Virus record (IMG/VR): IMGVR_UViG_3300032250_000184
Coordinates: 1 to 64,000 of that record
Reading direction: 5' to 3' (one strand)
Source of the DNA: a virus
Taxonomy: Duplodnaviria; Caudoviricetes
Length of the DNA stretch: 64,000 nucleotides
The stretch's first letter is position 1. Each line of letters opens with the position of its first letter. Positions 3,087-47,439 of the stretch are shown here, piece by piece. A program made the translations under genes and the position numbers. Under the pieces are notes generated by a model, which was not told where the DNA came from, searched no databases, and saw nothing but the letters and a program-made list of their open reading frames with translations.

Positions 3087-3623
3087 TTAGGAATTGGCAT
3101 CCGATATTAATTTTGGTATTACTGTTAAAGGATCCTCTATAACAAACCATTCACGGTTACTACGAACACGAACATAACCCAAAGATTCCAATATTTTGTG
3201 TATTTGTTTGTCGGATGTTTTACCTGCGTGCCAGTATGCAATTAATTTTAATTCACCACTATTACTGGTTGTGTCTTGTTCTTGAATTCTATCGTATGGA
3301 CTTTTTTTAGTTTCACCTATTTTATACCTATTAAATGTTCTTTCAGTATCGGTTGTATATACATAAATGTATTTTATTTGTCCATCTGTATAAATTAAAG
3401 GATTGATTTGTTTTATCCATCCAGTTTTTAATTTATGAATATAAGAATTATATCTCTGTTCTTCTTCATCTTGTAGTTGTAATTCACGAGCCTTTTTTGC
3501 TTGTTCCCATGGTGTAAATTTCCATAAAAACTTTAATAATTTCCATAACAATTTTGCTGTTATTATAATTATAAAAAAGAAACTTAGGAGTAGATAACCA
3601 AATATAGTGAATATTATTTTCAT
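3087..3623 (-). CDS. T5orf172/GIY-YIG-like domain protein with N-terminal TM helix
   Basis: YIYVY..RYKIGET..PYDRIQE..IH..L..REWF pattern; hydrophobic first ~30 aa. Confidence 0.7.
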   Translation of the reverse strand: MKIIFTIFGYLLLSFFFIIIITAKLLWKLLKFLWKFTPWEQAKKARELQLQDEEEQRYNSYIHKLKTGWIKQINPLIYTDGQIKYIYVYTTDTERTFNRYKIGETKKSPYDRIQEQDTTSNSGELKLIAYWHAGKTSDKQIHKILESLGYVRVRSNREWFVIEDPLTVIPKLISDANS

Positions 3624-4691: not shown

Positions 4692-6808
4692 GATATTAAT
4701 CCTATAAATCTGTTTAGTACTACACGGTTAGCAACACGGCCTCCTGTATATTTACTGAAAGCCGAAACGAGACCACGGGTCGTGGCATTTTGTTTCACTT
4801 CAAATCCAACATCATCTTCCGTATCAAGTGCTTCAGAACGCAGAACATAATATTCATCGAACCCAGCAGTCTTAACCACAGCAAATTTATTCTTACGAAA
4901 GCTTGCCTTGATAACTTCATGATTAACACTCTTTGGATAAAAGCAATGAATTTTACGGTTAAATTCTCTACCTGCAATTACATAAAAACCAAGAACATTA
5001 CAACCAGTCTTTGCTTTTAATAGTTTCACATAGGCCGCAGTATGTGAAGCACAATCGTATATATTCTCAACCGTTTCTTGATGCTTTGTAATTGGGTCAC
5101 GAATAACTAAACCTGCTTGAGCTCTACCATAAGCATCACTACCACGAGAAATGATTCTGCCATCAACATCGTGTTCCTGATAAACAGAACGAATTGTATG
5201 ACCATCACCATCGGTTAAGAATACAGCATTTACAATTTGTAATTTGTATTGTTTTTGAAAGTGTGGAACAATTTCCATTGCTGCAATAGTTGCTTCGTTC
5301 AATGGTGTGCCACCCATTGTCATCCAGTAAGGAATATAACGAGGTGATAATGACATCTTAACTAAAGAAGATGCTGCAAAAGTAAATTCACCTGCTGTCA
5401 TTTTACTTGATAACAAGTTCATCAAATAAAAATCTCTAGACGCCAAATCACCTGCTTTTGGTGTGCAAGAATATTGCAAAGATTCGTGAGATTCTGGTGT
5501 CGCAAAAGCATACACATCATATGGAATGTTTACTTTCTTGCAGAACATAACCAAAGAGATTAGTTGCTTCATTGTATTTTCAATATGATTAGACATAGAA
5601 CCAGACCAATCAAGGAACATTACAAGGCCGTGTGATTTGCCGTTTGGTACAACAGAAATCTTTTTAAAGATATCATCATTGAATTGATAAGAGAAAATCT
5701 TCTTCATATCAAGGTCACCAGTTTTAGCAGTAGTTGCTCGTTTTAACTGGTCGGCATTTTTACGCAATTCGAATTCTTTTACCAAGTAGGAAACAACCTT
5801 GTTGGTTTCACGGCGTAATTTTAAATATTTTGTATGGTCATTGATATCTTTCTTATAGTCAGACATCGATTCTTTGTATCTTTTGTATAGTACTTTGTAT
5901 GACATAATACCTTTGTTCATGTCAAACTTAGGAATGTTACCATACATATAATTCTTCGCATTTTCAGCAAAGAGTTTCTTTTCGTTTTGTTTATATGATT
6001 CATCGGTGAATGAACGAACATTATCTTCTTCCACTTCTTTGTGGTCAAAGCGTTCATCATTATTGATTAACTCATCATCATCTTCTGGAGTTTTTTCACC
6101 TTCGTTAGAGTCAGTAGGTTTCGATTGGGTTTCTTCATCAGTTTCTTCGCCTTCATCATCAAAGTCAGCTTCATCATCCCAATTACCAAAACCGTCAATA
6201 TCTTCTTCATCTTCTTCAACTTCTTCAGGAGGCATTTTAGACTTACGCTCTTCTTCCTGTTCTTTCATGTATGCAACGATGCGTTTAGTCACCTCAATAA
6301 CTTCATCATAAGTTTGAGTTGTTTCCACATCTTTAAGCAATACTTTCTCAACTGGTTCAAATTTAATACCAAGAGCTGGACCAAGTTTGCAATGAATATT
6401 CAAACGGTCAATAAAATTCATTTCATTGAGGTCGATGCCATTAGTACCAAAGAAATCTTTTGCAAAAAGTTCTTTGTATGCTCGAACAAAAGAATTGCGT
6501 AAGCCAGGATATTTGTATTTGATTTTTCGTTCAATGCGAGAATCTTCTACGACATTGAGAATGGATGGATTTACTTTTTCTTCTCGTGCCTTGAGCATTC
6601 CATCCATAGGAGTATAGAGTGCGTGGCCAACTTCATGACCAACAAACAAGTCATATGTGTGACCATTGATATTATCATCAAGAACAGGAATTACCAATAC
6701 TCGATTTTTTACATCGAACATGGCGGTTGATACTTTGCGGTGCTCTACCACAAGATTTTCTGTTGCCATTAGTTTGGCAAGTAATGATTTAGTGTCCTGT
6801 AATTGCAT
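4688..6808 (-). CDS. metallopeptidase-like + acidic linker + vWA (CobT-like) protein
   Basis: HEVGH zincin motif, NVVEDSRIE, MIDAS DWSGS...T...FLTDG; a common T4-like accessory gene. Confidence 0.8.
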   Translation of the reverse strand: MQLQDTKSLLAKLMATENLVVEHRKVSTAMFDVKNRVLVIPVLDDNINGHTYDLFVGHEVGHALYTPMDGMLKAREEKVNPSILNVVEDSRIERKIKYKYPGLRNSFVRAYKELFAKDFFGTNGIDLNEMNFIDRLNIHCKLGPALGIKFEPVEKVLLKDVETTQTYDEVIEVTKRIVAYMKEQEEERKSKMPPEEVEEDEEDIDGFGNWDDEADFDDEGEETDEETQSKPTDSNEGEKTPEDDDELINNDERFDHKEVEEDNVRSFTDESYKQNEKKLFAENAKNYMYGNIPKFDMNKGIMSYKVLYKRYKESMSDYKKDINDHTKYLKLRRETNKVVSYLVKEFELRKNADQLKRATTAKTGDLDMKKIFSYQFNDDIFKKISVVPNGKSHGLVMFLDWSGSMSNHIENTMKQLISLVMFCKKVNIPYDVYAFATPESHESLQYSCTPKAGDLASRDFYLMNLLSSKMTAGEFTFAASSLVKMSLSPRYIPYWMTMGGTPLNEATIAAMEIVPHFQKQYKLQIVNAVFLTDGDGHTIRSVYQEHDVDGRIISRGSDAYGRAQAGLVIRDPITKHQETVENIYDCASHTAAYVKLLKAKTGCNVLGFYVIAGREFNRKIHCFYPKSVNHEVIKASFRKNKFAVVKTAGFDEYYVLRSEALDTEDDVGFEVKQNATTRGLVSAFSKYTGGRVANRVVLNRFIGLIS

Positions 6809-39339: not shown

Positions 39340-41873
39340 GAAAAGAAATCCTCTATTGAACTAGTTTTTTCTGTTGACCACTTCATACAATCTAAAATAA
39401 CTTTGATAGGTTCAAGAAATGCTTTGTCGAATTGCATATCATAATCGATGTATTCTTGCATTTCAAATTCTTTAGGTAAACGAGAAGGATAAGATATGAC
39501 TGTATCTTTAAATGGATTTGGCATTTTTAAATAAGTAAACTTAACTTTTTCACCTTCTTGTATTAGTGGATACTTTTTGGTGAGATTCAATCGTTTTAGA
39601 TTCGTATTATAGATAATCGCACCCTTAACATGAATTGGTGTGCCTTTCTTGTAAAGATGTACCGCATCAGAATAGGTATTTAGCCCATTTAGTCCACGAG
39701 GAAAAGATATTTCTTCTACAGGCAGAGTTTTAAATTCTGCTCTGAAATCTGCAATGAACTTATGAATATCTTCTTGTGTTCCGTTTACCATTAATTGAAT
39801 TGCCTGTTTCATCTTCTCACGAATGGCAGAAGGTGTGGACGATTTAATCATCTCAAGACCCATCACCTTCATCTGCGGCTCGTTATACTGCACACCCTCA
39901 TTATTGTATACATTTAGAATGTAACGCTTCTTGGCCGTCCAAATACCTTTATTGGAAAGGCCTTCTCGTTTCATCTGCATTTTTTGGTCATAAGCATGAA
40001 CATACGTAGCAAGCTCTTGATAACTTTTGTCAATAAAAGGTTGTAACTTATCTTCACAGACCTTGTCCATGAAGGCGATAACTTGTTTAATGTCAGTCTG
40101 GTTTGGATACACCTTCTTAACAAGTTCACCAAGGTGGAGATAAATCGAATCTGTGTCAGAGGCGATAACATAATCTTCTTCCGTTTTCAATAAGTTGTTC
40201 ATGTATTGGTTAATCTTATTTTCGATCCAACGAATACTTAATTGTCCAGCAGTTGTAACACCCAAAGCCATTCTTAGGTCATAAAATCTAAAATATTGAG
40301 AACCAAGAGCACCGTAAGCAGAGTTAAGAGAAACTTTTTTGGCGAGCTGAATATTGTTGTACTTAGCGATTCGTTTTTCGATTTCGTATTTTTTCGATTC
40401 ATCTGTTTCATTTTCATACTCCTGTTTTGCAGCCAACATCATCTTTTTAAACTTACTTCTATCTTGATACATTTCTTCCATCATCTTAGGTAAGAAACCT
40501 TGAATGTCTGTACGAAAGAATTGTCCGTTTGGAGTGAGTGTAACATTCTCTAAACCAGATGTATCAACCGATTTAGTTAGGAGTTTTTCGACCGAAACAC
40601 CTTGTGATAAAACATTCCTCATCTCTTGAGTATAATCTTCAGGCTCGATCAAAGTTTCTGGAGAAATATTATATTGCATCATCAGGTGTGGATAGAGTGA
40701 GTTCAAATCGAAACTAGCAACCCAATCATGTAGTCCTGTCTTTGGTGTTTTAACATATGCACCCTCAAACATTCCATCTTTTTCTTTTACTTCTCTTGGT
40801 GGAACAATAATGTTTTTCTCACGCAAGTAGGAATAAGTCATTGCATCCCACATGCGAGTCTGTGCAAAAATATCTTCATAGTTGGATTTTGTATCGTAGG
40901 CCAGAGTTACACCTAGTTCCAACAGTTTCAACTTTTCTTCAAGACGAACAATCAATTCAACGTCTTTAATGTTATACTCAATAAACTTTTGATAGTTTAA
41001 ACGATATAGTGCATGTAGATTATCATATTCATCATAGGCAATCTTACCTTCACCCAGCTCGACTTGTGCAATGTTATCTAAACGATAAGATTCTTGTGAC
41101 TTACCACCTGGCGCATACCATTTGTATAGTTCAATATAATCAAGTGATGCAACACCAACAATGTCGTAAGCGATTAACTCACGGCCATTGATTCGGGTCT
41201 TTCTTTCGGTAAGATATTTCCAAGGAGACAAGGTTTTGGTTTCATCTTCACCTAGAATTTTACGGAAACGATTGATGATGTATGGTATGTCAAAGAACTT
41301 GGTATTCCAACCAGTAAGAATATCAGGACACACTTTTGTCCAGAGTGCCATGAATTGTTTGCATAAAGAATATTCATCTTTACACTTCACATAAACTTCT
41401 TCACCTTGTGTAACATACTCACCACAACCAAACACATAAGTTTTACCGTTAAGGTATTTTACCGCAATTGCTGTGATGGGTTCGTTTGCTTCATAAGGAT
41501 CAGGAAATCCATTCTCGGAACCAACCTCGATATCGATTACAGCAATTAAGACTTTATCTTGGTCATAGTCAACCATGCCTTGGTGTTGGTCGGCAATGTA
41601 AGCATATTCAAATCGTGTTTGGCCATAGACTTTAGAAGCACCAGACACACCTTCAAACTGCTTGATGTAATCTCTTGCCTCTTTAGTTGTACCAAATACT
41701 TTTTGATCTAGATAATCACCAGTGAGTGTGGTGAAATTAGTAACTCGTTTGGATGGTAGAAAAAGAGAAGGAGAATACTCAATTCTTTGCTTTACTCTCT
41801 TACCATCTATAATACCACGGTAGAGAATGTTACTACCAAAACATTGAACATTAGTATAGAATGATGAACTCAA
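39336..41873 (-). CDS. gp43: family B DNA polymerase
   Basis: DIEV, TGWN..FFDIPY, YNIKD, SFDLNSLYP, K..LNSAYG, SDTDS, KKRY. Confidence 0.97.
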   Translation of the reverse strand: MSSSFYTNVQCFGSNILYRGIIDGKRVKQRIEYSPSLFLPSKRVTNFTTLTGDYLDQKVFGTTKEARDYIKQFEGVSGASKVYGQTRFEYAYIADQHQGMVDYDQDKVLIAVIDIEVGSENGFPDPYEANEPITAIAVKYLNGKTYVFGCGEYVTQGEEVYVKCKDEYSLCKQFMALWTKVCPDILTGWNTKFFDIPYIINRFRKILGEDETKTLSPWKYLTERKTRINGRELIAYDIVGVASLDYIELYKWYAPGGKSQESYRLDNIAQVELGEGKIAYDEYDNLHALYRLNYQKFIEYNIKDVELIVRLEEKLKLLELGVTLAYDTKSNYEDIFAQTRMWDAMTYSYLREKNIIVPPREVKEKDGMFEGAYVKTPKTGLHDWVASFDLNSLYPHLMMQYNISPETLIEPEDYTQEMRNVLSQGVSVEKLLTKSVDTSGLENVTLTPNGQFFRTDIQGFLPKMMEEMYQDRSKFKKMMLAAKQEYENETDESKKYEIEKRIAKYNNIQLAKKVSLNSAYGALGSQYFRFYDLRMALGVTTAGQLSIRWIENKINQYMNNLLKTEEDYVIASDTDSIYLHLGELVKKVYPNQTDIKQVIAFMDKVCEDKLQPFIDKSYQELATYVHAYDQKMQMKREGLSNKGIWTAKKRYILNVYNNEGVQYNEPQMKVMGLEMIKSSTPSAIREKMKQAIQLMVNGTQEDIHKFIADFRAEFKTLPVEEISFPRGLNGLNTYSDAVHLYKKGTPIHVKGAIIYNTNLKRLNLTKKYPLIQEGEKVKFTYLKMPNPFKDTVISYPSRLPKEFEMQEYIDYDMQFDKAFLEPIKVILDCMKWSTEKTSSIEDFFS

Positions 41874-41874
41874 T

Positions 41875-42186
41875 TTAGCCTGTAATTAAAGATTTGGTTG
41901 GCGGAAGAACGATACCAGAACCAAAAATTTGATTGTAGTTTGTAATAAAATCTTCCGCAGGAACATAGGAGTATACTACATTCTTCTTAGCTAAGGCAAC
42001 CAGTGCATTTGATTTTTGTTCGGCATGAATGGGAAACGGTGCGAATCCAACAGAGGGTTGGCCATCTTTACCACGAACCACGGCAATACCAACAGGATTA
42101 ACTATTACAAATTCGGTTTCAGATTCAGATTCAACTTCTCCAAGAACATCTTCACCGGTTATTAATTTAAGTGCTAAAACTTTCAT
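41875..42186 (-). CDS. conserved Sm-like-fold T4-type protein
   Basis: LKLITGEDVLG; resembles 60038..60415. Confidence 0.55.
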   Translation of the reverse strand: MKVLALKLITGEDVLGEVESESETEFVIVNPVGIAVVRGKDGQPSVGFAPFPIHAEQKSNALVALAKKNVVYSYVPAEDFITNYNQIFGSGIVLPPTKSLITG

Positions 42187-42207
42187 TATACTATCTCCAT
42201 TTTTGAT

Positions 42208-42281
42208 TGGTTGCGGATCCTGGAGTCGAACCAAGAACTGAGGATTATGAGTCCTCTGTGATACCTTTTCACCAACCCGCT
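42208..42281 (-). tRNA. tRNA-Met(CAT), initiator-like acceptor stem
   Basis: A1:A72 mismatch, GCGGG/CCGC-A-CCA, loop CT-CAT-AA, TTCGACT. Confidence 0.85.
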
Positions 42282-42288
42282 ATATTTT

Positions 42289-42528
42289 TTAACCGTAAAT
42301 AAAAATTACTTCGTTGATAGGAACAACATATTGTTCATCTTCAACTTTTACCGCTTTGTTCCAATTTAAGAGCAACTCATCACCAATTGAAACCTCATCG
42401 ACTTTAGGACCAAGAGCAACAACTACAGCTCGATCAGGTTCTTCTGTCCACTTTAAAATGATTCCAGACTCGGTTTGTTTTTCTGCTGCAATTCGTGTTA
42501 CAATAATGTTATCTCTTAACGGTTTCAT
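42289..42528 (-). CDS. GroES-like co-chaperonin (gp31-like)
   Basis: KPLRDNIIV, ESGIIL, VVALGP, VSIGD. Confidence 0.85.
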   Translation of the reverse strand: MKPLRDNIIVTRIAAEKQTESGIILKWTEEPDRAVVVALGPKVDEVSIGDELLLNWNKAVKVEDEQYVVPINEVIFIYG

Positions 42529-42540
42529 AATTACCTTTCA

Positions 42541-42915
42541 TGTGAATTTGATGTTGCATTGTTGAGAATACTGTTTCGTGTTTAAAAGATTCTGGCCTGT
42601 GCTGGTTAACCCAGTCATTGCACGGATCTTTCCTCAATCGCATCGTTTACTCGGCATCAGCGTTCCGATATTTCCCAGATTTTGGGCTGACTTAACAAGG
42701 ATAGTTCACTTCCCTAACAGTTGGGATTGCTTACTCTTTCGCTCACATTCTCAACAATGCTCTCTGTCCCTAAACAGAGAACTTTGTGTCTTGTTACTTT
42801 TGGACGACAATCCTCAGGCCTGAATGAGGATACTCGGACACGGCCATTCGTCTTTGTATTTTTAGCCTGTTTGTGCATAACAGAATAGGGATTATCTGTC
42901 ATAGGCATGGCACCT
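42541..42915 (-). ncRNA. candidate large structured ncRNA directly 3' of tRNA-Gly
   Basis: 14-bp perfect inverted repeat 42556-69/42747-60 plus several hairpins; GC-richer than its flanks. Confidence 0.55.
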
Positions 42916-42920
42916 CTGTT

Positions 42921-42994
42921 TGGAGCGGGATGTCAGAATCGAACTGACAACGAAAGGTTGGAAACCTTTAGTTTTACCATTAAACTAATCCCGC
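42921..42994 (-). tRNA. tRNA-Gly(TCC)
   Basis: GCGGGA acceptor, U73-CCA, loop TT-TCC-AA. Confidence 0.92.
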
Positions 42995-42995
42995 A

Positions 42996-43130
42996 TTAAT
43001 CTTTATCTTTTCTTGCTTTTTTCTTTGCTTCTAATCTATCTAATAAATCTAATAATTCTTGTTTTGTTAATGTTCTACCCCAGCTAGATGTTGTTGTGTT
43101 TGCTTCAGGAACATCTTTAACTTTTTTCAC
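42996..43130 (-). CDS. small hypothetical protein (44 aa, GTG start)
   Basis: Manual translation VKKVKDVPEANTTTSSWGRTL... Confidence 0.4.
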   Translation of the reverse strand: MKKVKDVPEANTTTSSWGRTLTKQELLDLLDRLEAKKKARKDKD

Positions 43131-43133
43131 GAC

Positions 43134-43349
43134 TTATTCTGTAGCTACTGGCTCTGCACTTTTGCCAAAAGTTTGTGTTTGTAAACGATTTGCAATAGCT
43201 CTTTTAATTTTAGAAATGTGTTTCTTACGAGCACTATCTAACAATTTTGTTAATTGAGCAATGTTCAAAGGACCTAAACGTGGCTTGCCAGTTTTGGTCA
43301 ACATAGGATTTGCTTTACGAGTTTTTTGATTTGAACCTTTTCCTGCCAT
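43134..43349 (-). CDS. small basic hypothetical protein
   Basis: AAGGA SD; K/R rich. Confidence 0.6.
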   Translation of the reverse strand: MAGKGSNQKTRKANPMLTKTGKPRLGPLNIAQLTKLLDSARKKHISKIKRAIANRLQTQTFGKSAEPVATE

Positions 43350-43375
43350 AATATTTTATCCTTTAAACTAAAATT

Positions 43376-43442
43376 TGGAGCGGTGGTCTGCTATGCTCAG
43401 ATAATTCAAGAGGGTATCTCAAATCGTACTATTACACACCGC
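43376..43442 (-). ncRNA. non-canonical tRNA-Gly-like RNA (67 nt)
   Basis: GCGGTG/CACCGC-U-CCA acceptor, mini D-arm, loop AUACCCU, T-loop AGCAUAG. Confidence 0.7.
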
Positions 43443-43510
43443 ATATCCTGCTTACCGGTTACAGGGTCACTTAATGACGGAAGTTTTGCTGTTTCACAAC
43501 AGTAAATCTA

Positions 43511-43539
43511 ATTATATACTTATCTATGATGTTTGTCAA
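43511..43539 (-). promoter_or_regulatory. sigma70 promoter TTGACA-17-TATAAT
   Basis: Perfect consensus ~70 nt upstream of the tRNA-Gly-like RNA. Confidence 0.8.
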
Positions 43540-43557
43540 TAGATAATGTGGTACACT

Positions 43558-43632
43558 TGGTGGGCCAAGATAGAATTGAACTATCACTCCATCGATTATG
43601 AGTCGATTGCTTTACCATTAAGCTACTGGCCC
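43558..43632 (-). tRNA. tRNA(CAT), probably Ile2 (lysidine type)
   Basis: GGGCC acceptor, A73, anticodon arm ATCGA-CTCATAA-TCGAT like bacterial tRNA-Ile2. Confidence 0.8.
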
Positions 43633-43633
43633 C

Positions 43634-43708
43634 TGGTCCGGCTAGCAGGAATCGAACCCACATTAAGGGAGTAGAAATCCCCTGTATTATCCATTATACT
43701 ATAGCCAG
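43634..43708 (-). tRNA. tRNA-Arg(TCT)
   Basis: Loop TT-TCT-AC, TTCGATT, CCA end. Confidence 0.9.
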
Positions 43709-43713
43709 AATTA

Positions 43714-43953
43714 TTATAGTGAAGCCACACCAAGGTGAAATGAACTTATTAGTAAATCCTTGGAAATACCACAGAGGTTCCGGCTTACCAATCCCGACCT
43801 GTTAAGGTTTAGGTGTGCTTCACTATAATAATTCTTTTTAGATTTCTCTAATCGTCTTATAGCTTTGTTACTTTTTTTATGACTCCCAGCTTTACGAAAC
43901 AATGCCAATTTGACAAGATAGTTTCGTGGTTGAGGAGTATTTTTCTTCTTCAT
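43714..43953 (-). CDS. small basic hypothetical protein
   Basis: AGGAG SD; RKAGSHKKSNKA. Confidence 0.55.
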   Translation of the reverse strand: MKKKNTPQPRNYLVKLALFRKAGSHKKSNKAIRRLEKSKKNYYSEAHLNLNRSGLVSRNLCGISKDLLISSFHLGVASL

Positions 43954-43971
43954 AATACTCTCCTTAAAAAA

Positions 43972-44046
43972 TGGTGGTAATGAGTAGATTCGAACTACTG
44001 ACCTACTCCGTATGAAGGAGTTGCACTACCGCTGTGCTACATTACC
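43972..44046 (-). tRNA. tRNA-Met(CAT), elongator type
   Basis: Fully paired acceptor, loop TT-CAT-AC, CCA. Confidence 0.88.
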
Positions 44047-44047
44047 A

Positions 44048-44138
44048 TGGAGCTCGTTGTGTAAACGGGACGGCAAACTCCGTTGTTGTTCGGCCGAGAG
44101 GATCACCCAGCCCAATCATTACACTTGATACAACAATC
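44048..44138 (-). ncRNA. 91-nt CCA-ending tRNA-like RNA between tRNA-Tyr and tRNA-Met
   Basis: Ends pair (GATTGTTGT/ACAACGAGC) followed by U-CCA; internal GC-rich hairpins. Confidence 0.6.
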
Positions 44139-44223
44139 TGGTGGGGAATACTGGGATCGAACCAGTCGTGCCGCAAGGCGGCGGATTTACAGTCCGCTGA
44201 ATCACCATTGATTCTTCTTCCCC
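44139..44223 (-). tRNA. tRNA-Tyr(GTA)
   Basis: Loop CT-GTA-AA, long variable arm, CCA. Confidence 0.92.
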
Positions 44224-44229
44224 AAAACT

Positions 44230-44306
44230 TGGCTCCCTAGCGTGGGTACGATCCACGGACCTTCTGATTAACAGTCAGACGCTACTACCAACTGAGCTAC
44301 TAGGGA
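44230..44306 (-). tRNA. tRNA-Asn(GTT)
   Basis: Loop CT-GTT-AA, G73-CCA; variant T-loop ATCGTAC. Confidence 0.9.
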
Positions 44307-44944
44307 ATATTCTTAATTACTCTACCTTTTTTCCAACCTTCAGGTATGATATCGTTCTTTTTAATTCTAATACTTTCAATTCCATTTGTGATCCACATTG
44401 TACCATATTGTGAATTGCCTAAACCTTTTTGGTGAATACTGTTTTTTTCACCTATTTTTTTCTTGGATTCTTCTTTGTGTTTTTTACCTATCCAAGAGTA
44501 AGTATCTTTCCACGTTCTTAACAAACCTTTTTTGTGTAGTTCTTTGGATTGTTTTCTATTTCTTTCAATATATTCTTCACGAAATTTTGAATCTTCATTT
44601 AATCTTTTTATTAAAGCATCACTACCTAATTTACCAATTCGTTTTCGTTGTTCGTCTGTTATATTTTTGTTTATAAAATCAAAACCACCATCACCACCTT
44701 TTTTCAAGTTGTATGTGTGTGGCCCAATTTCAACCAATTCTTTTTCTTTCTCAAACATTTCTTCGGCTGAAGAAGCTTCAAAAATAATTTCTTTAATAAA
44801 ACTATCTACACCATATTTTGATATAGCTCGTTTTAAATATTTACCGGAACCAAAATAACCATCATTTTTGTCTCTGGTTTTATGACAACCGATATAAATC
44901 TTATTGTTAATAGTATTTGTTATCTTATATACAAGGTAAAACAT
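44300..44944 (-). mobile_element. Seg-like GIY-YIG homing endonuclease inside the tRNA cluster
   Basis: LVYKITN..KIYIGCH..YFGSG..KEII; KHKEESKKKIG (NUMOD3-like); WITNG..PEGWKKGR. Confidence 0.85.
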
Positions 44945-44988
44945 ATTTTCTCCCAATTATATAATATATATAAAAGTTCGATATTGTA

Positions 44989-45059
44989 TGCTCTGTGAGA
45001 GAATCGAACTCCCATATCAGGATTACAAATCCAGCGTAATACCATTATACTAACAGAGC
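44989..45059 (-). tRNA. tRNA-Thr(TGT), no encoded CCA
   Basis: Loop TT-TGT-AA; 3' end A-TAC. Confidence 0.85.
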
Positions 45060-45063
45060 CTAG

Positions 45064-45138
45064 TGGTACACGATACCAGAATCGAACTGGTCTTACCGCC
45101 GTGAAAGGGCGGTGTCCTAACCGATAGACGAATCGTGC
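45064..45138 (-). tRNA. tRNA-Glu(TTC)
   Basis: CCGCC-CTTTCAC-GGCGG, CCA. Confidence 0.92.
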
Positions 45139-45151
45139 ATCTAAGTAAAAC

Positions 45152-45180
45152 ATTATACATCAATCCACACAATAAGTCAA
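45152..45180 (-). promoter_or_regulatory. internal sigma70 promoter TTGACT-17-TATAAT
   Basis: Upstream of tRNA-Glu; TGTTG-N8-CAACA at 45186-45203. Confidence 0.7.
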
Positions 45181-45204
45181 GCGGCTGTTGTATGGAAACA
45201 ACAC

Positions 45205-45279
45205 TGGTCGGAGTAGAAAGAATCGAACTTTCGAAATCTCGCTCCCAAAGCGAGTGACATACCACTTGCCGATACTCCG
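45205..45279 (-). tRNA. tRNA-Pro(TGG)
   Basis: CTCGC-TTTGGGA-GCGAG, C1-G72, CCA. Confidence 0.92.
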
Positions 45280-45297
45280 TTTAACTTTACAATAACC

Positions 45298-45371
45298 GGG
45301 CATCCCGTGAGAGAATCGAACTCCCGCCAAGGCGTTTGGAGTGCCTTGTGCTACCATTACACCAACGAGAA
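45298..45371 (-). tRNA. tRNA-Trp(CCA), 3' end G-CCC
   Basis: Loop CT-CCA-AA, G73; CCA not encoded. Confidence 0.82.
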
Positions 45372-45373
45372 CT

Positions 45374-45460
45374 TGGCGGAAAGTATTGGGATCGAACCAA
45401 TGCACCCATTTCTGAATGACGGTTTAGCAAACCGTTGCCTTGCCACTCGGCCAACTTTCC
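45374..45460 (-). tRNA. tRNA-Ser(GCT)
   Basis: Loop TT-GCT-AA, long variable arm, G73-CCA. Confidence 0.92.
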
Positions 45461-45466
45461 GTAATC

Positions 45467-45554
45467 TGGAGGAAGATGTGAGATTCGAACTCACGGACCT
45501 ATTACAGCCTCTAGTTTTCAAGACTAGTGCAATCGACCACTCTGCCAATCTTCC
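45467..45554 (-). tRNA. tRNA-Ser(TGA)
   Basis: Loop CT-TGA-AA, long variable arm, CCA. Confidence 0.92.
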
Positions 45555-45556
45555 TT

Positions 45557-45633
45557 TGGTGGAGGTGACAGAGAATCGAACCTGCGACCTACTGCTTGCA
45601 AAGCAGCCGCTCTACCAACTGAGCTACACCCCC
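45557..45633 (-). tRNA. tRNA-Ala(TGC)
   Basis: G3:U70, loop TT-TGC-AA, CCA; one extra nt in the T-stem. Confidence 0.9.
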
Positions 45634-45668
45634 AAAAACAAAAAACCCAAGATGTTTAGTCTTGGGTT
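45634..45668 (-). terminator. attenuator terminator before the first tRNA
   Basis: AACCCAAGA-CTAAACA-TCTTGGGTT followed by TTTTGTTTTT. Confidence 0.8.
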
Positions 45669-45693
45669 CGTATAAACTTTGTTACTTAAAAAT

Positions 45694-45768
45694 TTACAAA
45701 CGAACCCCTACCTGCCACCCTGCGGCTGGTGATGTATAATTGGATGGGCTTGTAAATATATTTTTCAT
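45694..45768 (-). CDS. putative leaderless leader peptide MKNIFTSPSNYTSPAAGWQVGVRL
   Basis: ATG is the 7th nt after the -10 box; last codons contain GGGTTCGT, complementary to the terminator 5' arm. Confidence 0.7.
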   Translation of the reverse strand: MKNIFTSPSNYTSPAAGWQVGVRL

Positions 45769-45774
45769 TGTTCT

Positions 45775-45803
45775 ATTATATAGGATCTTTTTTGTCTTGT
45801 CAA
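45775..45803 (-). promoter_or_regulatory. tRNA-operon promoter TTGACA-17-TATAAT
   Basis: Perfect consensus with AT-rich upstream region. Confidence 0.85.
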
Positions 45804-45816
45804 GCAATTTTATTAA

Positions 45817-46314
45817 TTATTTCCAACCAAGCGGTTCTATTTCTATTGGTGAGTCAGGATCAACAACATGGTCAAATACTTCCCACAACTTTTCTTTTAC
45901 TGCAAACTTTGTAAACAATCCAGATTGCATCCCGTAAGCTTCTACTTCCCATGGTTGGAACCAATAATCTGGTTCCAAAACTTTACTACCTTTCCATCGA
46001 GTAAGATTTATATTAACATCACCATGTACATACTGTTTAATATGTACCATCTCATGACTTAGTGTTTTTAATATCTCAGCTGCACCAATACCTGGATGTA
46101 ATTCTATTTCAAATTGTCTTGGTTTATTACTACGACTAAACTCTACAACTGAAGCATATCCGTGTGCATTAATTTTTGAACTGAACTTAATTCTTAAAAA
46201 AATGTTTTCCAACATCCTAGGTGTCATTAAAGATTCTGCGTAAAACAGAGCAGCCCTTTTCACATAGGGACGGAAACGTTGTTTATCGGGACAACCGACT
46301 ATACTTAACTGCAT
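45817..46314 (-). CDS. zincin-like metallopeptidase (SprT-like)
   Basis: LSHEMVHIKQ, PWEVEAY; AGGAGA SD before MQLS. Confidence 0.7.
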   Translation of the reverse strand: MQLSIVGCPDKQRFRPYVKRAALFYAESLMTPRMLENIFLRIKFSSKINAHGYASVVEFSRSNKPRQFEIELHPGIGAAEILKTLSHEMVHIKQYVHGDVNINLTRWKGSKVLEPDYWFQPWEVEAYGMQSGLFTKFAVKEKLWEVFDHVVDPDSPIEIEPLGWK

Positions 46315-46411
46315 TTTAGGTCTCTCCTTAGTAAATTGACCCAATAATTGCATTAATCCGTTGATACTCACACTGCTTATTTATGACCAACACACATTTC
46401 ACCAGGTGAAA

Positions 46412-46846
46412 TTACTTCTGTATTTGTTCTATTATTATATCACATTTGGTCAAAAAGTCAAGCCCCTGTGAATCCCTGTAGGAATCACGGTAATATACCT
46501 TTTTGATGCCTGCGGTATATATTTGTTTAGCACAATCAATGCAAGGTGCATGGGTCAGGAACATCATGGAACCATCTCCAGACTCGGAACTCTTGGCCAA
46601 CTTAGCGATGGCATTGGCCTCAGCGTGAATCACCTCAGGTTTGGTTTTTGAGAATACCGTATCATCTGATAGTACGGTATAGTTTTCACATTCATTTGTC
46701 CAACCAGCAGGCATTCCATTATAACCAATAGAGATAATTCTATCTTCTTTAACTACAATCGCACCTACCTGTAACCGTTTGGCTGAAGATAATTTGGCAA
46801 ACCTTTCGGCCACGTCCATGTAGGCATCAATAAATTTTTGTTTCAT
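46412..46846 (-). CDS. cd: dCMP deaminase
   Basis: VGAIVV, GYNG, HAEANAI, PCIDCAK. Confidence 0.9.
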   Translation of the reverse strand: MKQKFIDAYMDVAERFAKLSSAKRLQVGAIVVKEDRIISIGYNGMPAGWTNECENYTVLSDDTVFSKTKPEVIHAEANAIAKLAKSSESGDGSMMFLTHAPCIDCAKQIYTAGIKKVYYRDSYRDSQGLDFLTKCDIIIEQIQK

Positions 46847-47439
46847 CGTTTTGTAAAACTTTCAATAATTCTAATAAATGACCATACATTATTCCTAATG
46901 GATGAATCATAAAGTGCCATCTGTTCTAATACAGCATCTTCAATTCCAGCACTAAATTGATTTTTCGAAATTTTAATTGTGGCTTCTTTTTCGAAAGAAT
47001 CTAAAGTAACAATCGTCATGTTATTCTTTTTGGCAATATGTTGTATCGTTTTATTCTCCGACAAACAATGCATGAATAATGATTCCGAACCCATTGCTCT
47101 GGCCCAAATAGCACCACGATTAAACAATTCTTGGCCAATTTTTTGATCACGATAATCAGGACTAACCGTTAATCCTAATTCAGCAGATTTTGTTTTTTTG
47201 TCGTAAGCAACATGACAAGAAGCTACAAAATTGCATCCATCTTCCACAACAAACCACATATTCTTAAAACCATAATGTTCGAAAGATTTATCACAAATGT
47301 ATCTTTCTATGATATCATCATTAACAATGTTGCCAAATCTCAATCTCCTATCATCACCACGAATGTCATCATAGAAGTGTTTTACCAATCTATCAATGTC
47401 CATTTTGTGTGGAACTAATTTTCTAGGAATCATTACCAA
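46843..47439 (-). CDS. GNAT acetyltransferase
   Basis: AELGLTVSPDYRDQKIGQEL (motif A), N..IQHIAKK. Confidence 0.8.
   Translation of the reverse strand: MVMIPRKLVPHKMDIDRLVKHFYDDIRGDDRRLRFGNIVNDDIIERYICDKSFEHYGFKNMWFVVEDGCNFVASCHVAYDKKTKSAELGLTVSPDYRDQKIGQELFNRGAIWARAMGSESLFMHCLSENKTIQHIAKKNNMTIVTLDSFEKEATIKISKNQFSAGIEDAVLEQMALYDSSIRNNVWSFIRIIESFTKR

Follow-up and report, generated by a model that had tools for sequence, protein, structure and literature searches.

A putative ribosome-mediated attenuator with a codon-matched leader peptide ahead of the first tRNA operon of a T4-like phage, and similar units in unrelated phage tRNA arrays

The first tRNA operon of a T4-like phage is likely to be gated by a ribosome-mediated leader-peptide transcription attenuator, and the phage would probably make the five tRNAs behind it only when ribosomes decode the codons of the leader slowly. 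The first-pass annotation had proposed an attenuator at this place, and the proposal is supported by each of its features that can be examined in the sequence as well as by conservation in 17 relatives; that transcription starts at or next to the ATG, that the leader is translated and that the switch responds to tRNA supply is what we infer from these sequence patterns. Beyond this one phage, we lean towards a wider reading, in which codon-matched leader attenuators are a widespread and hitherto undescribed form of tRNA-array control, operating block by block in very different phage lineages (AT-rich T4-like phages of freshwater, GC-rich phages whose genomes have direct terminal repeats, and phages with promoters of the Bacteroidota type). 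Under the same joint reading, each mini-ORF would poll the charged-tRNA pool for exactly the codons of its block, giving a homeostatic tRNA supply, and the lineage studied here would have a putatively leaderless sensor that always carries one Trp codon paired with a tRNA-Trp gene.

The stretch of DNA analyzed here (hereafter the window) covers 64 kb out of a 72.7-kb IMG/VR viral contig, has a GC content of about 36% and comes from a T4-like freshwater phage lineage, with T4-type replication genes for UvsX, a family B polymerase and the clamp-loader subunit gp44. It carries 14 tRNA genes on the minus strand, at 42.2-45.6 kb, and one of its three CAU tRNAs is initiator-like (1:72 mismatch). The gene directly upstream of the leader (45817-46371) encodes a HExxH motif and has no Pfam match, while one distant relative of it is annotated as a WLM protease domain protein. 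By this gene, the nearest cultured phages are Caulobacter phage Cr30 and Methylophilales phage Melnitz (~30-35% identity), neither of which has tRNAs or a leader downstream of the homologue. Apart from tRNA matches, the phage record collection contained no close relative of the window, and a scan of GTDB genomes with the region 2/3 pattern described below gave no match and hence neither a prophage copy nor a hint of the host. The elements of the proposed attenuator, all on the minus strand and in the order of transcription, are as follows.

45798..45803, minus strand: -35 hexamer TTGACA of the leader promoter, part of a full 12/12 promoter match
45775..45780, minus strand: -10 hexamer TATAAT, with the ATG 6 nt downstream
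45694..45768, minus strand: leader ORF of 24 codons plus TAA (protein P0001), an open frame in 17/17 relatives
45742..45757, minus strand: region 1, codons 4-9, predicted to pair with region 2 (anti-antiterminator helix)
45710..45730, minus strand: central hairpin within the ORF, codons 13-20, in the minimum free energy (MFE) fold; a possible pause hairpin
45692..45707, minus strand: region 2, the final four sense codons with the stop and 2 nt more, predicted to pair with region 1 or region 3
45664..45680, minus strand: region 3, the antiterminator 3' strand, whose last 5-6 nt start the terminator 5' arm
45634..45669, minus strand: intrinsic terminator (regions 3:4), with its stem at 45669-45643 and its T-run at 45642-45634
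45205..45633, minus strand: the putatively regulated genes tRNA-Ala(UGC), Ser(UGA), Ser(GCU), Trp(CCA) and Pro(UGG), with no promoter after the terminator
45152..45180, minus strand: next internal promoter (11/12), which precedes tRNA-Glu and tRNA-Thr and ends the attenuated unit

The leader promoter is a sigma-70 promoter of the form TTGACA-17 nt-TATAAT, present on the minus strand at 45803-45775 with all 12 of 12 positions matching, just as annotated in the first pass. This exact pattern occurs in only two copies in the whole 64-kb window, against 0.07 expected by chance, and both copies lie on the minus strand within the tRNA region. The ATG had been placed at the 7th base after the -10 box, and its A is indeed found there, at 45768. 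From this position the leader mRNA would be leaderless or nearly so, and there is no space for a Shine-Dalgarno sequence, given that only 6 nt lie between the -10 box and the ATG here, and 3-6 nt across the relatives. The ORF itself is present exactly as it had been written out, at 45768-45694. Downstream, no promoter-like site was found between the terminator and the five tRNAs (Ala, Ser, Ser, Trp, Pro), and the promoter at 45180-45152 follows tRNA-Pro, in line with the earlier statement that five tRNAs stand ahead of the next internal promoter.

The leader transcript is predicted to fold stably (MFE -34.5 kcal/mol, z = -3.2), with nucleotides 12-77 forming a closed folded domain whose 3' strand is common to the antiterminator. 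The terminator that had been described just before tRNA-Ala has the stem and the T-run expected of it, although the stem is of 10 bp and not 9; it closes a 7-nt loop, and the T-run reaches 45634, with tRNA-Ala starting at 45633. As to the antiterminator, the 8-bp pairing noted earlier is real and extends to 17 pairs, but it does not take up the whole of the terminator 5' arm, with which it overlaps by 5-6 bases only. In the window this 2:3 helix has a predicted energy of -15.8 kcal/mol, compared with -10.8 kcal/mol for the terminator. Missed in the first pass were a strong helix between region 1 and region 2 and the central hairpin inside the ORF. Taken together, the predicted 1:2, 2:3 and 3:4 helices are the complete four-segment layout of a trp-type attenuator.

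With this layout, regulation would proceed as follows. RNA polymerase would start at the ATG or 1 nt before it, and a ribosome would load on the 5' end of the transcript. A fast ribosome would reach the stop codon inside region 2 and mask this region, letting the 3:4 terminator form and transcription end 9 nt before tRNA-Ala. If the leader is left untranslated, 1:2 pairing would again allow the terminator to form, so that read-through from the upstream gene would not reach the tRNAs either. In contrast, a ribosome that is slow on the central codons (Thr, Ser, Pro, Asn, Tyr, Ala, Gly and Trp, for the most part codons that tRNAs of the phage itself can read) would cover region 1 and free region 2, which would then pair with region 3 before region 4 is made, leaving no terminator and letting the tRNAs be transcribed. 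Since the sensed codons are those that the regulated tRNAs read, the outcome would be a negative feedback on tRNA supply, with more phage tRNA synthesis when charged tRNAs are short and shut-off when they are ample. The physiological trigger may be a mismatch in codon usage with the host, or a depletion of particular tRNAs in the host through starvation or anticodon nucleases, to which the phage may in this way respond automatically. Only about 10 nt separate the conserved Trp codon from region 2 downstream of it, so that a ribosome stalled exactly at this codon would cover part of region 2.

A conserved leader ORF and antiterminator were sought in related genomes, starting from the 393 relatives of the upstream gene in IMG/VR and adding three pattern scans, which together yielded 17 distinct leader versions from viral and metagenome contigs that were aligned; all three helices are kept in these 17 relatives, which show signatures that point to both translation and alternative RNA folding. 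The signatures of translation lie in the reading frame. The ATG follows a -10-like box by 3-6 nt (mostly 6) in 17/17, and frame 0 is open in all of them, while stops interrupt the +1 frame in 17/17 and the +2 frame in 14/17. The length of the ORF varies between 22 and 26 codons through in-frame indels only, the 7 distinct gap runs inside it being of 3, 6 or 9 nt, as opposed to 1-2 nt for the 6 that lie after the stop. In every variant the stop codon (TAA) falls within region 2, whose 16 nt are almost invariant, as would follow from its having two pairing partners and also needing to encode the end of the peptide.

The signatures of folding are found in all three helices, with the same order of predicted stability (1:2 > 2:3 > 3:4) in all 17 variants and energies of -13 to -25 kcal/mol for the 1:2 domain, -12 to -16 kcal/mol for 2:3 and about -11 kcal/mol for 3:4. 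The terminator stem is 100% paired across the relatives and includes two covarying pairs (A-U to U-A). The 8-bp core of the 2:3 helix is invariant within the family, hence without covariation, and the 1:2 helix, counted in a fixed register, is 81% paired with no double changes; for these two helices, energy tests of each sequence against shuffles were used in place of fixed-register covariation. The 2:3 helix is more stable than with shuffled spacers in 17/17 (mean z = -2.9), a result that comes from four quite different spacer sequences, and the 1:2 domain is more stable than after shuffling of codon order, also in 17/17 (mean z = -2.25). Region 2 is paired upstream in each of the 17 MFE folds, and the central hairpin appears in the MFE fold of most variants, formed from differing sequences. 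The 5' half of the domain is free in both sequence and register, and in some variants the region 1 motif is even read in another frame.

The leader peptide had been described as written in the operon's own codons. In the window, all 13 codons from 6 to 18 encode amino acids for which there is a tRNA, as claimed, and 11 of the 13 can be read by one of these tRNAs through Watson-Crick or standard wobble pairs, which again agrees with the earlier count; the two exceptions, TCC and GCC, would require non-standard reading by a U34 tRNA. Against a background in which 35.1% of the codons in 47 long window ORFs are cognate to the 14 tRNAs under the same pairing rules, 11/13 has P = 3.6e-4, or P = 0.002 after correction for choosing the best 13-codon stretch. 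A run of 13 residues inside the tRNA amino-acid set has P = 0.0011, and 8 of 23 residues are among the four amino acids of the first five tRNAs, compared with 17% in the background (P = 0.029).

Within the family, the clearest pattern concerns Trp: exactly one Trp codon, at a fixed position, is present in 17/17 leaders (in one variant outside the central hairpin), and tRNA-Trp follows the leader in 14 of the 15 arrays with enough sequence. Ala codons are found in five leaders with a tRNA-Ala heading the array and in one variant without tRNA-Ala, while the ten leaders that lack Ala codons have no tRNA-Ala in the array; Pro codons and tRNA-Pro behave similarly. As these are related variants, the co-variation of Ala and Pro may reflect one or two evolutionary events. 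The expectation that leader codons co-vary with tRNA content is accordingly borne out by the Ala, Pro and Trp patterns and fails in three mismatches: L097 has kept its Ala and Pro codons and has neither tRNA-Ala nor tRNA-Pro, L103 has Ser and His codons and no such tRNAs within 3.9 kb, and L220 has no tRNA-Trp within 3.8 kb.

Independent units came from a metagenome scan with the region 2/3/terminator pattern. About three quarters of its matches were the 3' ends of tRNAs or tmRNAs with their terminators, which were discarded, and the non-tRNA matches included classical Leu-rich bacterial leaders; this shows that the pattern is selective for attenuators as a class, in which region 2 has to look like region 4. 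Two units lie in a single tRNA cluster of a complete 109.5-kb GC-rich phage (G001). The first, at the head of the cluster (L233:11754-11882), has all 16 amino acids of the tRNA block that follows (P = 0.012) and an in-set run of 33 (P = 0.0014), with Gln and Tyr absent from the leader. The second (L104:1304-1387) has 15 consecutive residues made solely of Leu, Ser, Tyr and Gln, and its terminator is followed by eight tRNAs (Leu, Leu, Leu, Ser, Tyr, Ser, Gln, Gln). No run as long was seen in 400,000 simulated peptides (P < 2.5e-6), and 12 of the 15 codons of the run are directly cognate by manual reading. The leader had predicted a tRNA-Tyr in this array before one was called, which took a relaxed ARAGORN threshold. 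The two G001 leaders thus divide the genetic code the way the two tRNA blocks do.

A comparable unit in G003 (L234:6460-6543) has 15 consecutive residues drawn from Leu, Ser, Asn, Tyr and Cys ahead of an array of Leu, Cys, four further Leu, Ser, Ser, Asn, Ser and, further on, Tyr; 16 of its 26 residues are in the set (P = 3e-6), and all 15 codons of the run are cognate by manual reading. On a contig with a Bacteroidota-type promoter, L205:2087-2170 has a run of Thr, Arg, Gln, Pro and His before an array of Pro, an inserted HNH endonuclease gene, Arg, His, Gln, Arg and Thr (P = 0.0009-0.0065; the run itself has P = 0.0009 when ambiguous bases are scored against the match). Longer arrays of 20-31 tRNAs are preceded by the leaders L236:1420-1518 and L002:3619-3720, whose 31-32 residues cover 19 of the 20 amino acids, a nearly complete checklist (P = 0.003 and 0.006, respectively); in L236 the ATG lies 6 nt after a -10 box, and L002 comes from relatives of the window's phage. 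On folding, the independent units other than L205, whose sequence contains N, gave the same alternative helices, and in the other phage families the stop codon comes 8-29 nt downstream of where region 2 begins. In a further tRNA region, an attenuator-like unit (L226:3297-3395) stands ahead of a gene for a small protein, and the tRNAs farther on have their own promoter; its leader shows no significant match to those tRNAs (P = 0.18) and was dropped as support for codon matching. The description of the leader as written in the codons of its own operon is supported by the 11/13 of the window and in part by the Ala codons of the relatives, and the tRNA arrays of unrelated phages, with leaders drawn from exactly the amino acids of the tRNAs that follow the terminator, give it the strongest support.

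It is in these arrays that the preferred reading parts from the likeliest of its alternatives, an attenuator that also depends on ribosomes but reads out the general state of translation (how available ribosomes are, how well transcription and translation are coupled, or how far the cell can initiate on leaderless mRNA) and not particular tRNAs, with little weight on leader composition. The same anatomy would fit such a device, and leaderless initiation is responsive to physiological state. Moreover, each sensed codon is present in the leader only 1-3 times, unlike the tandem runs of his and phe leaders, so that sensitivity to any single tRNA may be low, and several relatives have leader codons with no matching phage tRNA. 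We nevertheless regard it as unlikely, in that leader composition tracks the tRNA set far beyond chance in several unrelated phages, and that two leaders in one genome (G001) split the 20 amino acids as the tRNA blocks do, for which a general sensor would have no use.

Less probable still is that the ORF is simply one of the small genes of the phage, served by a promoter and a terminator of its own, with an incidental alternative pairing and with tRNAs that come from leaky read-through. Small ORFs are indeed common between the tRNA genes of large phages, and the C-terminal half of the peptide is well conserved, but the conserved C-terminus coincides with region 2, and other families read the same RNA motif in other frames, which indicates that it is the RNA and not the peptide that is conserved. 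The 2:3 and 1:2 helices, each of which beats its shuffled controls in 17/17, also argue against an incidental pairing, as do the five tRNAs without another promoter, and a gene of this kind would leave unexplained why leaders in independent phages match the tRNA set.

We give slightly less credence still to a structured RNA switch (riboswitch-like, binding a protein or a tRNA), in which the 1:2 pairing would act as P1, the ORF would be untranslated and a ligand would decide. Such a switch would be consistent with the closed domain of nucleotides 12-77, which shares its 3' strand with the antiterminator like riboswitch expression platforms, and is at odds with a reading frame whose indels are all multiples of 3, in contrast to those outside it, with frame 0 as the only one open in 17/17, and with an ATG that keeps its place at the predicted start of the transcript. 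Sequence and register both vary freely in the 5' half of the domain, and no Rfam family, T-box included, was matched at E <= 1: a scan of 41500-47000 at this threshold returned only tRNAs and nothing in 45634-45803, and an Rfam scan at E <= 1 gave no family for the tRNA-like unit of the relatives either.

Three further candidates were ruled out: a T-box riboswitch by the empty Rfam result at E <= 1 in 45634-45803; an arrest peptide of the TnaC/SecM type, given that the conserved C-terminal residues coincide with region 2 and that the frame, and with it the residues encoded by the motif, differs between families; and a tRNA gene or pseudogene, for which neither ARAGORN nor the Rfam tRNA model gave any call in 45634-45768, the T-arm-like look of region 2 being due to its need to resemble region 4.

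With the trpL, hisL, leuL, thrL, ilv and pheL leaders of enterobacteria, the phage element would share a promoter-proximal short ORF, the 1:2, 2:3 and 3:4 segments, an intrinsic terminator just ahead of the regulated genes, the masking of region 2 by a ribosome finishing at the stop, and control codons in or next to region 1; as in the multivalent thr and ilv leaders, several amino acids would be polled at once. It differs from them in regulating tRNA genes instead of enzymes, in having as control codons a mixed checklist that matches the downstream tRNAs and not runs for a single amino acid, in making a product (tRNA) that is itself the sensed molecule, which would give direct feedback, and in being phage-borne with an apparently leaderless mRNA. 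In the pheST attenuator of E. coli, a Phe-rich leader controls phenylalanyl-tRNA synthetase, which is likewise attenuation of a component of the translation apparatus with charged tRNA sensed via ribosome speed; unlike in the phage element, the target is a synthetase, one amino acid is polled and the ribosome-binding site is conventional. T-box riboswitches also couple the state of the tRNA pool to terminator read-through by means of an antiterminator, but they bind uncharged tRNA directly and without a ribosome, using a T-box sequence and a specifier loop, and they control synthetase or amino-acid genes, whereas the phage element would control tRNA genes.

The apparent leaderless start has a precedent in mycobacteria, where leaderless polycysteine short ORFs are reported to be Cys-responsive attenuators (bioRxiv 10.1101/834739). 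These resemble the phage element in having a regulatory short ORF at the 5' end of the transcript, with translation coupled to what lies downstream, and differ from it in responding to one amino acid, controlling cysteine-related protein genes and being host-borne (bioRxiv 10.1101/834739). Full-text searches of the literature found no description of attenuators on tRNA genes. Compared with known attenuators, the phage element would stand apart in its tRNA-gene target, its mixed codon checklist, its direct feedback and its apparent leaderless start.

Why phages carry tRNA genes, and how these are timed and dosed, is a long-standing question, and the control of bacterial tRNA genes is thought to act mainly at promoters. 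If true, the present reading would mean that decoding speed feeds back directly on tRNA synthesis, a new use of a very old mechanism; limiting a charged tRNA should then open the terminator, and recoding of the leader should retarget the sensor. The element could also serve as a compact programmable part for sensing the tRNA pool. More speculatively, there may be a bearing on the counter-measures of phages to host defences that cleave tRNAs. For the phages themselves, the leader sequence would show which codons each treats as limiting in its host.

The gene that lies just before the leader promoter, and whose relatives were used to collect variants of the leader (the 24-codon ORF of the candidate attenuator before tRNA-Ala), carries an HExxH motif:

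45817-46371, minus strand, upstream gene with HExxH motif

IMG/VR contains 393 relatives of it, and a distant homologue bears the annotation WLM protease domain protein; a Pfam search with the product itself gave no match. In several relatives the stop codon of this gene adjoins the -10 box of the leader, which accounts for the absence of a -35 element there. In many relatives (L017, L026, L052-L081), a different unit immediately follows the upstream gene's homologue and occupies the position of the leader: a perfect promoter, next an RNA of about 68 nt, and next a small basic ORF, with the tRNAs behind it. The RNA has a tRNA-like acceptor stem and a 3' end of the form N-CCA, and lacks the T-loop consensus; no family was matched in an Rfam scan. 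In the window, a second perfect promoter seems to drive an RNA resembling that of the relatives:

43539-43511, minus strand, second perfect promoter of the window
43376-43539, minus strand, promoter and the similar RNA that it seems to drive

Three tRNA genes of the window have the anticodon CAU:

42208-42281, minus strand, first CAU tRNA, initiator-like with a 1:72 mismatch
43558-43632, minus strand, second CAU tRNA
43972-44046, minus strand, third CAU tRNA

Codon 4 of the leader would need an Ile2 species that reads AUA, and either the second or the third of these tRNAs may be that species.

Among attenuated tRNA arrays of other phages, the complete GC-rich phage G001 carries an identical motif of about 17 nt after both of its attenuators, between terminator and first tRNA (L229, about 2880-2900 and 6405-6430), which may represent either a second promoter element or a site of processing. 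On contig L205, an HNH-type homing endonuclease gene inserted at 2400-2950 splits the first tRNA (Pro) from the remaining attenuated array.

Attenuator-like units were also recovered in other settings. The L226 unit (3297-3453) comprises a perfect promoter, an ATG 6 nt past the -10 box, a 32-codon ORF and a terminator, and sits within a tRNA region, yet the next gene is a protein gene of 56 codons, and the leader of the unit does not significantly match the tRNAs in its neighbourhood. Two further short ORFs start 3-6 nt past a -10 box and end before antiterminator/terminator pairs, one of them being rich in Phe, Tyr and Trp, with no tRNAs near either:

L187, about 3400-3600, minus strand, short ORF
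L126, about 380-500, short ORF

Finally, Leu-rich short ORFs in nine GC-rich bacterial contigs from metagenomes (L130, L155, L170, L178, L190, L215, L228, L132 and L204) end in the same region 2 motif (the segment pairing with region 3 in the antiterminator), with a terminator downstream, and probably represent leucine or branched-chain amino-acid leaders of the classical kind. As these matches demonstrate, the search pattern (region 2, region 3, terminator) picks attenuators in general.
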